Origin: Escherichia coli
Lineage (GTDB): Bacteria; Pseudomonadota; Gammaproteobacteria; Enterobacterales; Enterobacteriaceae
Reading direction: 5' to 3' (one strand)
Length of the DNA stretch: 64,000 nucleotides
Assembly: GCF_009931435.1 (NCBI RefSeq)
Contig: NZ_CP043414.1
Part shown: in pieces, positions 56,674 to 61,104 of the stretch
How positions within the stretch are numbered: the first letter of the stretch is position 1
Layout: each line of letters begins with the position of its first letter
The notes under the pieces: generated by a model
Database searches by the model: none
Seen by the model: only the letters and a program-made list of their open reading frames with translations
Told to the model about the DNA's origin: nothing
Translations under genes and position numbers: made by a program

Positions 56674-58086
56674 ACCTTTCTTCGCTTCTTCATACGCTGC
56701 CAGCGTTCGCAGCCTTGCCTCTTTGTGGTCAACTATCGGTTGCGGATAATCCAGCTTCACACCTGCTTTCTCTGCCCACTTCCACGGTTCATGCACCGCT
56801 TTCCCTGGTACATCGCGCAACTCTGGTAGCCACCGGCGAATAAACTCGCCCTCGCGGTCAAATTTCTCGCCCTGGGTTGTCGGGTTGAAAATACGAAAAT
56901 ACGGCGCTGCATCAGTACCCGTAGAAGCCGCCCACTGCCAGCCACCGTTATTGGCTGCCAAATCACCATCAATCAGCTGCGACATGAAATACCGCTCGCC
57001 TTCGCGCCAGTCGATCAACAAATCTTTCACCAAAAAGCTTGCTGTAATCATCCGTAGCCGATTATGCATCCAGCCAGTGCTGTTAAGCTGACGCATGGCC
57101 GCATCAACAATCGGGTATCCCGTTTTGCCTTCCTGCCAGGCCTTTAAATGCGCGGGATTACTTTGCCACTGTACGCGATCGGTCCAGGCAATAAAGGGGC
57201 GATGCTTACACAGTGACGGGTGATACGTCATCAAATGACGGTAGAACTCGCGCCAGATCAGCTCATTAAGCCAGACGCTACCAGCCCCGCCATCCAGCGC
57301 ATGCGGCTGTTCCGCCAACAGGCGATGCAGACACTGGCGAGGCGATAACCTACCCGTTGCAAGGCTTGCAGACAAACGGCTGGTGCCTTCCACTGCCGGA
57401 AAATCACGCTGCTGATCGTACTGACTCGCACCGTTCTGGCAAAACTGGCGTAATTGCGCAATCGCCGCTTTTTCTTCCACCGGGAAATGCGCGGTATCGA
57501 ATGACTGACGAGGGTAATTCAGCGTAATAGATGGCGCGGGATCTAATGATCCGCTACTCCGAACTTTTGGCGCAGCGACGCACTCCGGCATCCCTTCCCG
57601 CAGCCGTTTCAGCCAGGCGTTTTTAAATGGCGTAAAGACTTTGTACATCTCATGATTGCCAGTCATCACCGCCCCCGGCGGCAGGATCACGCTGTCATCA
57701 AATCCTTCACACACCACGTTACGCAGCGTTCTCTCAACCTGCACATCCCGCGCCCGCTCATTCACCTCATACTGATAGTTATAAAACAGATGGGTAACAC
57801 GGTTTTCCGCGCACACCTGTTTAACTATTTCGACGCTGGCGGCAAAGTCATCCACTTCATGAAACAGCAAAGGAATGCCTTTTTCCGCCAGCGCGATTTG
57901 TAGCCCGTTCAGTTGTGCATTGATAAATTCAGCCTGACGCGGCGACATATTATGCGCCGCCCACTGGCGTGGTGTAGCGATATACAACGCCAGCACGCGT
58001 GCAGACGAATTGCGGCAGGCGGCAGCAAGCGCGAGATTGTCGTGCAGACGTAAATCCTGGCGAAACCAGACCAGATGGGTAGTCAT
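56668..58086 (-). CDS. phr: Deoxyribodipyrimidine photolyase
   Basis: 472 aa, MTTHLVWFRQDLRLHDNLALAAA.. plus FAD-binding C-terminal domain. Confidence 0.95.
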   Translation of the reverse strand: MTTHLVWFRQDLRLHDNLALAAACRNSSARVLALYIATPRQWAAHNMSPRQAEFINAQLNGLQIALAEKGIPLLFHEVDDFAASVEIVKQVCAENRVTHLFYNYQYEVNERARDVQVERTLRNVVCEGFDDSVILPPGAVMTGNHEMYKVFTPFKNAWLKRLREGMPECVAAPKVRSSGSLDPAPSITLNYPRQSFDTAHFPVEEKAAIAQLRQFCQNGASQYDQQRDFPAVEGTSRLSASLATGRLSPRQCLHRLLAEQPHALDGGAGSVWLNELIWREFYRHLMTYHPSLCKHRPFIAWTDRVQWQSNPAHLKAWQEGKTGYPIVDAAMRQLNSTGWMHNRLRMITASFLVKDLLIDWREGERYFMSQLIDGDLAANNGGWQWAASTGTDAAPYFRIFNPTTQGEKFDREGEFIRRWLPELRDVPGKAVHEPWKWAEKAGVKLDYPQPIVDHKEARLRTLAAYEEAKKGA

Positions 58087-58592
58087 AAAACTCCTGCATG
58101 GCGCAAGTTAATCACCCGCGGCCAAAGTTCGAAATAACGCTGCTCTGAAAGCCAGGCGTCAGGATAAAGCGCCATATAGTGTTTGATACGCATCAGCGGC
58201 GCAAGAAGCGGTTGCTCGCCACGGCGATAACTGTCGATAAGCGCCGCCAGCTGCTGGCGTTCTGTGGAATCAATATGTGGGCGAAAATAACCCTGAACGT
58301 GCATCAAAACGTTGGTGTGATCGCGCGGGTTGGCGGGATGAGAAAGCAAAACAATTACGCGTTGGCGGTACTGGTTGTAATAGTCACCCAGATTTTGCCA
58401 CTGGTGAATATCAGCCACAAACGGGCCAAGTTTGCGGTATTCCGGCTGGGAATGAGCCAGAAAGACGAGTTTATAGCGGCTGTGATAATCGAGAAGCGCC
58501 CCGCGCGTTAAGCCTCGCTCTTTAAGACGGTGTAACTCATGCAAAGCAAAAATGCGGATAAGGGTGCTGTCATCAAAAAGTTGTTGATTCAT
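58083..58592 (-). CDS. ybgA: DUF1722-family protein YbgA (co-transcribed with phr)
   Basis: 169-aa ORF whose stop overlaps the phr start. Confidence 0.85.
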   Translation of the reverse strand: MNQQLFDDSTLIRIFALHELHRLKERGLTRGALLDYHSRYKLVFLAHSQPEYRKLGPFVADIHQWQNLGDYYNQYRQRVIVLLSHPANPRDHTNVLMHVQGYFRPHIDSTERQQLAALIDSYRRGEQPLLAPLMRIKHYMALYPDAWLSEQRYFELWPRVINLRHAGVL

Positions 58593-58676
58593 TACTACTC
58601 CTGGGCGGTTTACAGGAGTAAGTGTAGACGGCGGTACTGAAAAAACGAAACGAATAAATGATAACAGTAAAAAAAT

Positions 58677-59126
58677 TCAATTATTCATAATAAATTTCAT
58701 GGTGGCAAGAAATAGTTTCTTTTCTTCATCACTCATGGCAGCAACGTTTAACATGTTGTCATCAAAATTATTGATGATATTTTTTAATTTCAGTAACTGC
58801 AAAGGAGAAAAATAGTCACTCCCGATGAGATTACTCAATACCAGCAATAGCTCCCCATCATATAAATAGCCCACCATAAGATTAATCTCTATCATCTCAA
58901 TTGCTTTTTGTACAGCAAGCGCCGGTAAGATATTCTGACGAAGCATTTTGGCAATATCATTTTCATCCAGTTCATCGGGTGTTTTATCTAATAAAGAATT
59001 ATACCAGTTTATTAAACCACTTTTGAAAGCGAACGAATCATATTGCAGGTGATAAATCTGTTTTAGGGTTTCTTTATTTTTCAATTTATAGTGCCTTTGT
59101 TTGCTATAATTTTTCTGAAATAACAT
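58677..59126 (-). CDS. Hypothetical protein (149 aa), AT-rich; candidate immunity protein
   Basis: ORF whose start overlaps the stop of the upstream 155-aa ORF (TGATG); low-GC composition. Confidence 0.45.
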   Translation of the reverse strand: MLFQKNYSKQRHYKLKNKETLKQIYHLQYDSFAFKSGLINWYNSLLDKTPDELDENDIAKMLRQNILPALAVQKAIEMIEINLMVGYLYDGELLLVLSNLIGSDYFSPLQLLKLKNIINNFDDNMLNVAAMSDEEKKLFLATMKFIMNN

Positions 59127-59593
59127 CAGCGAGTTTGCTCAGGTGCAGGGATGACCGAAATTGTCATGTATTTTTTCAGTCTGGCTTCTCGTTTCACACC
59201 TTTCGGATCTGAACCAAAAGGAAGCGTCAAGCATGGTGAGTCAACGGTTTGGATTGTCCAGAGAGAATCACCAATGAATCTGAAATTGATGCTATCCGCT
59301 GTAACGGATAATCCCTCAAAACTTCCCGTCGCATACTCATTACCCAAACGTACGGTCTCTTTAACTCCATCATTAACATCGATAAGGACAATTGTCAGTG
59401 ATTCCTCAAAAATAACGTCATCCGTCAGAAAAAGGATATAACGCTGGTCATTAACCTGAATTGCCGCTTCCAGTATTTGCCCTGGTACAATAATACCTGT
59501 GTTATTGCCATTGAGCACAACGTCAGACTGAGCCTGAGATAAATCAGTCGCTTTGTGAACCTTGACCAACGATATCGAATTAACCTGTTGCAT
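59126..59593 (-). CDS. Hypothetical protein (about 155 aa from MQQVNSISLVK)
   Basis: ORF 59126..59686 in the track; start at 59593 preferred because it lies 2 nt after the stop of the Gly-zipper micro-ORF. Confidence 0.4.
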   Translation of the reverse strand: MQQVNSISLVKVHKATDLSQAQSDVVLNGNNTGIIVPGQILEAAIQVNDQRYILFLTDDVIFEESLTIVLIDVNDGVKETVRLGNEYATGSFEGLSVTADSINFRFIGDSLWTIQTVDSPCLTLPFGSDPKGVKREARLKKYMTISVIPAPEQTR

Positions 59594-59595
59594 AA

Positions 59596-59736
59596 TCAAT
59601 TCCACAAGCGCCCCATTTCCCATGCGGCAAGTGCACCGCCGACAAAGCCGCCAATAAGTACGCAAACAGGTGCACCTGGACCACACACCAATCCTGCCAT
59701 CGCGCCGCCTGCGACAGCTCCGGCAATAATATTCAT
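59596..59736 (-). CDS. Possible 46-aa glycine-zipper membrane peptide (MNIIAGAVAGGAMAGLVCGPGAPVCVLIGGFVGGALAAWEMGRLWN)
   Basis: Manual reverse-strand translation; GxxxG-rich hydrophobic peptide; could instead be the remnant C-terminus of a deleted larger gene. Confidence 0.3.
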   Translation of the reverse strand: MNIIAGAVAGGAMAGLVCGPGAPVCVLIGGFVGGALAAWEMGRLWN

Positions 59737-59919
59737 CCGGGTACGACTGCCAGTGGTTTTAACAGATTTGCGCTCACCGTTACGTATCCTGCCACCACTC
59801 AGGTTGCAGACGCGGCAGTCACAGCCTTGACGGTGTTGAAACTAAAGTTCAGGTGATAGTCTGATGTTCATAGTTTGAGCATTATCCCCTGACAGAATCA
59901 AATCAAGCAGTGTCAATGA

Positions 59920-60177
59920 TCACGTGTATATATCATTTAAAGCATTATCAAGCCAATCTTCCATGTTTTTAATTTTAGCCCGCGCATATAAATCATTCAT
60001 AACATCCTCATAACTCTGTCCATCATTGACCATACAATTAGCTGTATGAGGCAGAACATGTATAAAATCAGACAATATAAAACAAGCCTTTGAATTTCCA
60101 GAGTTAGCTGCAATTCTGATATCAATCAATCCTCTGGCAATCAATTTAAGAATAACATCTTGCATTTTAATTTCCAT
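59920..60177 (-). CDS. Hypothetical small protein (85 aa), AT-rich
   Basis: ORF in the same orientation as its neighbours in the AT-rich array. Confidence 0.35.
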   Translation of the reverse strand: MEIKMQDVILKLIARGLIDIRIAANSGNSKACFILSDFIHVLPHTANCMVNDGQSYEDVMNDLYARAKIKNMEDWLDNALNDIYT

Positions 60178-60259
60178 ATCATTCAGTTAAATTTCAGTAG
60201 TAAATCGTCTATCAAAAAAAGATGAAATTAACATTCATAAATTTATTACAATATGAAAA

Positions 60260-60613
60260 TCAAAAATATACATCATCAGCTTCTACCGAAAACTCCATGG
60301 CTCCTAAGGCACCTAAATCAATACTAAATATAGTATCACTTTCCTTAGCACTCCCAACATAGATAAAATAGCCTAAATCTCCGTCTTGACCTATCAAAAA
60401 ATAGTCAGGTTCCACTTGTTGAATATCATATGTTTCATTTCTTTCAATAAGATCAGAATAGTTATATAAATATAATGTTTCGTGCTTCTTATTAGTTATT
60501 TCATAGGTCTCACTATCTTTAATTTCTTCTATCAAAAAACGTTTATACACTGGAGGAAACTTGATTGACATGTCAAATTCAATTTTATTTATATATTCTA
60601 TAATTTTATTCAT
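60260..60613 (-). CDS. SMI1/KNR4 (SUKH)-like protein; putative polymorphic-toxin immunity protein
   Basis: 117 aa; N-terminal FPPVYKRFLIEEI resembles the SUKH hallmark (lP.dYk.FL); AT-rich. Confidence 0.55.
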   Translation of the reverse strand: MNKIIEYINKIEFDMSIKFPPVYKRFLIEEIKDSETYEITNKKHETLYLYNYSDLIERNETYDIQQVEPDYFLIGQDGDLGYFIYVGSAKESDTIFSIDLGALGAMEFSVEADDVYF

Positions 60614-60844
60614 GTTAAGAATACCTGAAAGATTATTTATTGATTATCTTGATGAATATATCTTCACTTTTTATTTTCATTTACTCATCGCGGAAATACA
60701 CATTGCCTTGTAGACAAGCGCTAATAATACGTTATGAACCTGACTTCCGCCAGACAATCAATCAATGAATTCATTACGCCGTAGTGTTTTAGAAAGACAC
60801 TTTCTGACCAGATGGTGAACCATATACTACATCGCGCATTATAA

Positions 60845-60882
60845 AAAAACCGCCAGCGTTTCCACTAGCGGTTTTCAATGTT
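60845..60882 (-). terminator. Bidirectional intrinsic terminator downstream of ybfA
   Basis: aaaaaaaccgccagcg-tttccac-tagcggtttt hairpin with A-run and T-run flanks. Confidence 0.6.
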
Positions 60883-60897
60883 TTCAAAACTCAGCAA

Positions 60898-61104
60898 TCA
60901 GTAAAAATCACCGGTTGCCTTTTCGGCCTGATCCATCCACACCGGTTTATCGCTGGTTTTCGACCAGACGCGGTGCAGGTAGCTGTAAAAGCGGGCGCGG
61001 TCTTTCCAGAAAAGCATGAAAGGCAGCGCCAGAACGCCCGCTGCAACCGCATAAGTACGGCGTAAAAAGATAAGCCATGCAGGATATTCTCTGTAAAGTT
61101 CCAT
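60898..61104 (-). CDS. ybfA: DUF2517 small protein YbfA
   Basis: 68 aa, [47 protein letters not shown].. Confidence 0.85.

Follow-up and report, generated by a model that had tools for sequence, protein, structure and literature searches.

Polyimmunity loci of polymorphic toxin systems have already been defined (Zhang, Aravind et al. 2012, PMC3482391). Among single immunity proteins, the contact-dependent growth inhibition (CDI) protein CdiI of uropathogenic Escherichia coli (UPEC) 536 is represented by PDB entry 5J5V, the CysK:CdiA-CT:CdiI complex (PMC11724271); the CdiA toxin of this strain is an Ntox28 tRNase activated by CysK (PMC9086364, PMC11724271), and CdiI(EC536) blocks tRNA binding by that tRNase. 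E. coli K-12 carries the 9.56-kb RhsC element (rhsC, ybfB, ybfO, ybfC and H-rpt genes) between ybfA and ybgA. We analyzed 64,000 nucleotides of an E. coli genome (RefSeq assembly GCF_009931435.1, contig NZ_CP043414.1), hereafter the window, in which a 2,210-bp island of five small open reading frames (ORFs) lies between the same two genes in the same orientation. We consider it probable that this island is a heterogeneous polyimmunity locus and an immunity-only allele of the RhsC site, directed against Tox-SHH, Ntox28 and, presumably, glycine-zipper toxins.

Comparison by blastn with K-12, with a shorter form of the island and with empty-site loci places the island at 58631-60840, starting past the ybfA terminator and ending before the upstream region of ybgA, as judged from the junctions. 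The five small ORFs listed in an initial annotation of this interval are all present on the minus strand, in the order (from the ybfA side) ORF-D, ORF-C, a glycine-rich ORF, ORF-B and ORF-A; the longest ORF in the island is at most 186 amino acids, and the intergenic gaps measure 80-190 bp. The same annotation described an AT-rich stretch of 2 kb, which holds for the island as a whole (GC content 36.4%, versus 50.0% for the window), but the composition is not uniform: the outer parts have 30-32% GC, whereas a central 810-bp module (59119-59928) reaches 46%. This module sits between ORF-C and ORF-A and consists of an unmatched 190-bp segment, the glycine-rich ORF and ORF-B. The glycine-rich ORF stops 2 nt ahead of the ORF-B ATG (TGAttATG), and the overlapping stop and start codons noted earlier were found between ORF-B and ORF-A, whose TGA and ATG share one base (CGCTGATG, 59128-59124; TGATG). 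We place the start of ORF-B at ATG 59593; the program-made ORF list runs it from 59126 to 59686, up to GTG 59686. A repeat search around the island and the 810-bp module found no target-site duplication, terminal inverted repeats or flanking repeats. The features are as follows.

58631..60840, no strand: the whole island, at the same junction as the K-12 9.56-kb RhsC element and the empty site (blastn; GC 36.4%).
60260..60613, minus strand: ORF-D, 117 amino acids, putative SUKH (SMI1/KNR4) orphan immunity gene (Pfam, PDB 3d5p, toxin linkage of relatives, and the ratio of non-synonymous to synonymous substitution rates, dN/dS).
59920..60177, minus strand: ORF-C, 85 amino acids, no family, candidate immunity gene (position).
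59119..59928, no strand: 810-bp module, GC 46%, in the long form only (blastn of the window against short-form loci L002 and L020).
59596..59736, minus strand: 46-amino-acid glycine-zipper ORF, 3' stub of a ~240-amino-acid gene (homologues P0001-P0041, DNA alignment with an Enterobacter gene, tblastn).
59126..59593, minus strand: ORF-B, 155 amino acids from ATG 59593, conserved partner of the 240-amino-acid glycine-zipper protein, presumed immunity or antidote gene.
58677..59126, minus strand: ORF-A, 149 amino acids from ATG 59126 (135 amino acids from TTG 59084), CdiI_3 family (Pfam, PDB, dN/dS).
60846..60875, minus strand: ybfA terminator hairpin (inverted repeat); the T-run behind it is the ybfA-side junction in all three locus states.
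60898..61104, minus strand: ybfA, flanking core gene (RefSeq annotation of matching loci).
58083..58592, minus strand: ybgA, flanking core gene (NCBIfam PRK10167, 9e-104; RefSeq annotation).

The ybgA-ybfA interval, which the initial annotation had proposed comparing across genomes, proved polymorphic, with RhsC, the island or nothing at a single junction. Among 5,426 complete E. coli genomes, the ybfA-rhsC junction is present in 3,689 (68%) and the island in 170 (3.1%), and in some genomes the site is empty, with ybfA ~100 bp from ybgA. All three states have one junction in common, after the T-run of the ybfA terminator and before GTCTACACTTACTCC. The island occurs in two forms. The short form (157 genomes) contains a SUKH gene, a 94-amino-acid ORF-C and a CdiI_3 gene and is ~92% identical to the window; the long form, that of the window, carries the extra 810-bp module and is found in 13 of the genomes, strain 2020CK-00188 being one example. 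A long-form island is also present at the same chromosomal place in E. fergusonii (L023). Because the window and E. fergusonii are 99-100% identical within the island and 90-98% identical in the flanking core genes, their near-identity suggests that the island allele was recently exchanged between the two species. Between ybfA and the SUKH gene, the short form has a putative ERIC/IRU-like repeat (L002 4549-4787) that is absent from the window. In strain WP7-S17-ESBL-01, the insertion sequence IS5 lies within the SUKH gene of a short-form island (L018 7960-8940).

The SUKH signature that had been noticed at the N-terminus of ORF-D is real, if weak: the Pfam matches (SMI1_KNR4, E = 1.6e-4; SUKH_6, E = 0.0087; SUKH_5, E = 0.015) are each modest and agree with one another, the Smi1/Knr4 chain 3d5p in the PDB is matched with E = 1.6e-5, and some alleles are named "SMI1/KNR4 family protein" in RefSeq. 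The protein shows neither a signal peptide nor a transmembrane segment. When one genome per species was scanned, 23 relatives were found, 11 of which lie 14-49 nt 3' of an Rhs reading frame. These Rhs-linked relatives include genes of Ewingella, three Xenorhabdus, Photorhabdus, Erwinia, Mangrovibacter, Winslowiella and Flavobacterium; relatives in Ewingella, Xenorhabdus, Photorhabdus, Erwinia and Flavobacterium are 52-57% identical to ORF-D. The Rhs frames preceding SUKH relatives comprise four that are full length (1,469-1,537 amino acids) and several truncated Rhs C-termini. Following DPxGL, the full-length examples end in a conserved domain of ~135 amino acids with the motif SHHPIQD; the one such tip that we scanned with Pfam, that of Ewingella, matches Tox-SHH (HNH/EndoVII nuclease) with E = 7e-38, and the other tips share its conserved end sequence. 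Because its relatives directly follow Rhs proteins with a Tox-SHH tip, ORF-D appears to be an orphan RhsI-type immunity gene, and we infer from these relatives that its cognate toxins are Rhs C-terminal Tox-SHH nucleases. Between the long and short forms, ORF-D has accumulated 13 synonymous and 3 non-synonymous changes (dS 0.23, dN/dS 0.05) and is thus under clear purifying selection.

Profile searches of the kind the initial annotation had called for returned SUKH for ORF-D and, in addition, a family that it had missed for ORF-A. ORF-A matches CdiI_3 (PF18616) in Pfam with E = 2.7e-17, and its sole PDB sequence match is chain C of 5j5v, the CdiI of UPEC 536 (E = 2e-6). In Pectobacterium parmentieri, a Pyocin_S-Ntox28 toxin gene is followed by a CdiI_3 gene that lies 3.8 kb from a glycine-zipper/partner pair of the type described below; the product of this CdiI_3 gene shares 27% identity with ORF-A (E = 2e-9). 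No cognate toxin, either a CdiA-CT or another Ntox28 carrier, adjoins ORF-A in the 64-kb window. Because the window is without a toxin gene, ORF-A is best regarded as an orphan CdiI_3 immunity gene, distantly related to CdiI(EC536). ORF-A is also under purifying selection (dN/dS 0.20, long versus short form), and the selection on both ORF-D and ORF-A argues for function. The short-form CdiI_3 gene starts at an ATG (L002 3585) whose long-form equivalent is TTG 59084; in the long form, an in-frame ATG at 59126 lies 14 codons upstream of this TTG and overlaps the ORF-B stop. The resulting N-terminal extension corresponds to the old tail and stop of ORF-C (TAA to CAA), now translated in frame. The P. 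parmentieri genes belong to an integrase-bounded island (L014 10001-15360) with a glycine-zipper/partner pair, a 366-amino-acid gene, PAAR, the Pyocin_S-Ntox28 toxin and CdiI_3; in sister strains (L013, L015) the toxin is lost or truncated and CdiI_3 is retained.

The 46-amino-acid glycine-zipper peptide of the initial annotation exists as an ORF, but not as a free-standing gene: its homologues (P0001-P0041) are C-terminal pieces of a protein of ~240 amino acids rather than small peptides. Because DNA homology to the Enterobacter gene starts only at ~59727, ~43 codons and the stop are what is left of the 240-amino-acid gene in the window, although the reading frame stays open further 5', to 59841. 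The ORF is therefore the truncated 3' end of a gene for a ~240-amino-acid glycine-zipper membrane protein. The 190-bp segment 5' of the stub (59737-59928; GC 51%) matches only the same locus in the 13 long-form E. coli genomes and E. fergusonii. Relative to E. fergusonii (L023), 8 of 138 nt are changed in the stub and 4 of 465 nt in the adjacent ORF-B; the stub seems to be drifting, diverging faster than its neighbors.

The glycine-zipper family has more than 870 members, in Pantoea, Enterobacter, Kosakonia, Cronobacter, Pectobacterium, Serratia and Pseudomonas. Alignment and a predicted model describe a helical protein in which a glycine-zipper hairpin, bearing an invariant C-GPGAPV-C motif, comes after a hydrophobic helix; the AlphaFold2 model has a predicted local distance difference test (pLDDT) score of 58, too poor for a fold search. 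The two cysteines of the motif (C212 and C219 of the Pantoea agglomerans protein P0055) fall at the hairpin turn, where a disulfide-stapled hairpin is possible. A reconstructed 237-amino-acid member has no Pfam domain, and searching the PDB with the family, by sequence and by profile, turned up nothing better than chance. In three unrelated genomes the 240-amino-acid gene is broken while its downstream partner is intact: in Enterobacter by a frameshift in an A8 run (L003 ~1155-1170), where A7 would restore the frame; in Pantoea stewartii by an in-frame TAA (L004 5941-5943); and in one metagenome by a frameshift (L007 6632-6637). The many C-terminal fragments of 78-90 amino acids in the database suggest that breakage of this gene is common, and the A-run of the Enterobacter gene could be a phase-variable switch.

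Three other identities for the stub or its parent were discarded. A class II microcin or Cdz-type small bacteriocin was ruled out by the homologues, which are C-termini of 240-amino-acid proteins, and a colicin pore domain was dropped for want of a match to Pfam Colicin. RefSeq (PGAP) labels 59681-59800, which overlaps the stub, an "IS630 family transposase" pseudogene fragment in 12 of the 13 long-form E. coli genomes. The label is unsupported: NCBIfam gave no match for the open frame, no other E. coli copy of the DNA was found even at "distant" sensitivity, and tblastn found no match to an IS630-like gene in L013-L015.

Directly downstream of the stub, ORF-B is the conserved, linked partner of the 240-amino-acid glycine-zipper protein. 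Wherever a glycine-zipper gene was examined, whether intact or broken, it is followed at once by a gene for a partner of 153-162 amino acids, the distance between the two ranging from an overlap to a gap of 13 nt, and four of these partners are 75%, 54%, 39% and 33% identical to ORF-B. The TGAttATG junction between the two genes is kept from Enterobacter to Escherichia, and dN/dS of ORF-B against Enterobacter is 0.14. The family comprises 477 cluster representatives at 50% identity across Proteobacteria, all "uncharacterized" in AFDB. The model of ORF-B, an all-beta, partial-propeller-like fold, has a pLDDT of 93.8; the protein contains no hydrophobic segment (max KD19 1.63) and is predicted to be soluble and cytoplasmic. 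It has no Pfam match, and comparisons with the PDB by sequence and by profile gave either nothing or chance-level matches; a literature search for the glycine-zipper/ORF-B family found no paper. Three members (P0245, P0267 and P0334) are tandem duplications within one polypeptide (312-351 amino acids, two matched stretches), which recall polyimmunity proteins or would fit the completion of a propeller.

Gene linkage makes ORF-B a candidate immunity gene, and a 240-amino-acid gene repeatedly broken beside an intact partner is the pattern expected when an antidote outlives its toxin. The stub and ORF-B mark a large uncharacterized two-gene family. Tentatively, and with slightly less than even confidence, we propose that its first product could be a membrane-depolarizing toxin of a new class, which a new immunity fold would neutralize from within the cytoplasm. 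Such a glycine-zipper system could be either the cargo effector of a secretion system or a new abortive-infection module. We retain both an interbacterial and an intracellular interpretation of the pair because conserved secretion neighbors are lacking, because the family is absent from phages and near-absent from plasmids, and because the neighboring genes are often those of defense or conflict systems: ThsB_TIR with a caspase, McrBC, AbiEii and type I restriction-modification. One instance is Serratia sp. FGI94 (L055 5910-9177), where a ThsB-type TIR gene and a caspase-like Peptidase_C14 gene immediately precede the pair, possibly in a defense island.

The intracellular interpretation, which concerns the central module only, holds that the 240-amino-acid protein and ORF-B form a toxin-antitoxin or abortive-infection pair, of which ORF-B would be the leftover antitoxin or sensor. 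It draws on the defense-gene neighbors, on the predicted cytoplasmic location of ORF-B, and on the genomic setting of the pair, always a stand-alone unit of two genes without conserved secretion genes; among nine contexts examined, a PAAR gene is near it only in Pectobacterium. We nevertheless find this interpretation doubtful. Neither protein has a PADLOC match, and the absence from phages and near-absence from plasmids noted above speak against it. Moreover, the pair adjoins PAAR and Ntox28 toxin genes in Pectobacterium and lies inside an immunity island in Escherichia, and the fact that the first gene has been lost repeatedly while the second was kept fits a retained immunity gene better than a lone antitoxin.

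The initial annotation saw in the interval probable orphan toxin/immunity cassettes, a reading borne out by the ORF-D relatives that follow Rhs-Tox-SHH and by the glycine-zipper ORF, a toxin-like stub with a conserved partner. It placed RhsC at this position in K-12, which is correct, the orientation being the same as well, and saw no intact toxin gene, which also holds: there is no ORF of at least 1,000 amino acids in the 64-kb window and no Rhs or CdiA motif in or beside the island, and the few pattern matches elsewhere in the window look like chance. Its suggestion of a "reduced or replaced" Rhs/CDI-type immunity island stands as regards replacement, whereas no remnant of an Rhs core or of K-12 RhsC that would show reduction is present. 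We found neither large ORFs nor a VENN-containing CdiA near the island that would indicate cdiBA, and no link between the island and CDI machinery. Scanning all the ORFs against NCBIfam, PADLOC and PHROGs yielded nothing useful. Of the attributes of an Rhs element, the island has the RhsC site and orientation and lacks an rhs core with a toxin tip, while its gene content is that of a polyimmunity locus: SUKH and CdiI_3 genes, with ORF-B presumed to be a third, stand in tandem on the minus strand, and the only toxin sequence is the 43-codon stub.

These observations bear on whether the island could be the in-situ wreck of an Rhs element, whose rhs core and toxin tips were removed by deletions that left the immunity genes behind. 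The shared site and orientation, the Rhs immunity genes among the relatives of ORF-D, and the arrays of orphan tip/immunity modules known in Rhs elements (PMC3150448) are all compatible with such an origin. However, the island contains no Rhs core, DPxGL, YD-repeat sequence or similarity to K-12 RhsC; its 80-190-bp gaps leave no space for tip remnants besides the glycine-zipper stub, which itself comes from a stand-alone 240-amino-acid gene rather than from an Rhs tip; and its junctions are those of the empty site. We therefore judge an in-situ wreck unlikely.

In the polyimmunity interpretation that we favor, a toxin-free row of co-oriented immunity genes would occupy the site used by most E. 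coli for RhsC. Each product would bind and neutralize its cognate toxin when a neighbor injects it through a type VI secretion system (T6SS)/Rhs, CDI or related route, so that the carrier would be shielded without the cost of weapons. ORF-B would be the antidote of the glycine-zipper protein, kept after the toxin gene was cut down, and ORF-C might be one more immunity gene. Homologous recombination in the conserved flanking genes, ybfA and ybgA, would spread the island allele. ORF-C is a candidate by position; it is 85 amino acids long in the window and 94 in the short form, and has 29 homologues, the named sources of which are all E. coli or E. fergusonii, the rest being metagenome or read-archive sequences.

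Several points weigh against this interpretation. The SUKH match of ORF-D in Pfam is weak when taken alone. In the long form, a TTG stands where the CdiI_3 gene originally had its ATG. ORF-B has no signal peptide or transmembrane segment, unlike the immunity proteins of the pore-forming T6SS effector Ssp4, and in the nine contexts no secretion system is consistently linked to the glycine-zipper pair. ORF-C belongs to no family (no Pfam, NCBIfam, PADLOC, PHROGs or PDB match), and its dN/dS of 0.37 rests on 13 changes. A promoter and terminator scan of the island did not rise above chance level. That the ORFs are non-functional leftovers in acquired, probably silenced AT-rich DNA is nonetheless very improbable: the low GC of the outer parts (30-32%), the chance-level promoter signal, the rarity of the island in E. 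coli (3.1%) and the IS5 within the ORF-D gene of one strain agree with it, but ORF-D and ORF-A have been under strong purifying selection over ~20% synonymous divergence, 170 E. coli genomes and E. fergusonii carry intact frames, and the stub diverges faster than the genes beside it.

The orphan-immunity concept is established and one of the island genes is already labeled as CDI immunity in RefSeq; the advance offered by this locus is modest, and its interesting residue is the uncharacterized glycine-zipper/ORF-B family. The ybfA-ybgA junction is a three-state locus, holding the RhsC weapon, an immunity-only island or nothing, and therefore provides a clean natural system for asking when shields pay a lineage more than weapons. 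The shields would be an orphan RhsI and an orphan CdiI, directed at Tox-SHH nucleases and Ntox28 tRNases respectively, together with the retained partner of a lost membrane toxin, and the near-identity of the E. coli and E. fergusonii alleles suggests that such shields move between species. The island also offers a cheap and concrete experimental entry to the unstudied glycine-zipper toxin/partner family. If the two-gene toxin/partner reading is true, the Escherichia island would be an indication from nature that retaining the partner by itself is worthwhile.

Compared with described systems, the 240-amino-acid protein is reminiscent of the pore-forming T6SS effectors Ssp4, Ssp6 and Tse4 (PMC12669606): it is helical, with C-terminal hydrophobic glycine-zipper helices, and, like ssp4-sip4, it is encoded in a stand-alone pair away from secretion clusters. 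The partners differ, Sip4 being an integral membrane protein with four transmembrane helices (PMC12669606) and ORF-B a predicted soluble all-beta protein. ORF-A shares the CdiI_3 family with CdiI(EC536) (5J5V; PMC9086364, PMC11724271) but is a distant relative, in a window without cdiBA or an Ntox28 toxin. With K-12 RhsC and the orphan rhs-CT/rhsI modules (Poole et al. 2011, PMC3150448) the island has in common its junction, its orientation and the RhsI-type relatives of ORF-D; it differs in having no rhs core, orphan Rhs tips, H-rpt genes or RhsC sequence similarity. The orphan immunity and acquired interbacterial defense islands of gut Bacteroidales and Vibrio (bioRxiv 10.1101/2025.05.03.651265) are likewise effector-free and strain-variable and presumably serve to survive attack, although phylum, toxin classes and mobilization differ, and the island described here is an allele at a core-genome junction rather than an integrative element. 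The polyimmunity loci (PMC3482391) differ from the island in that it is small (3-5 genes), includes a toxin stub, lies at a defined polymorphic Rhs site and contains the ORF-B family, which is not among the listed Imm families. With those loci it shares tandem, co-oriented immunity genes of unrelated families, without toxin genes and with SUKH as a frequent member.

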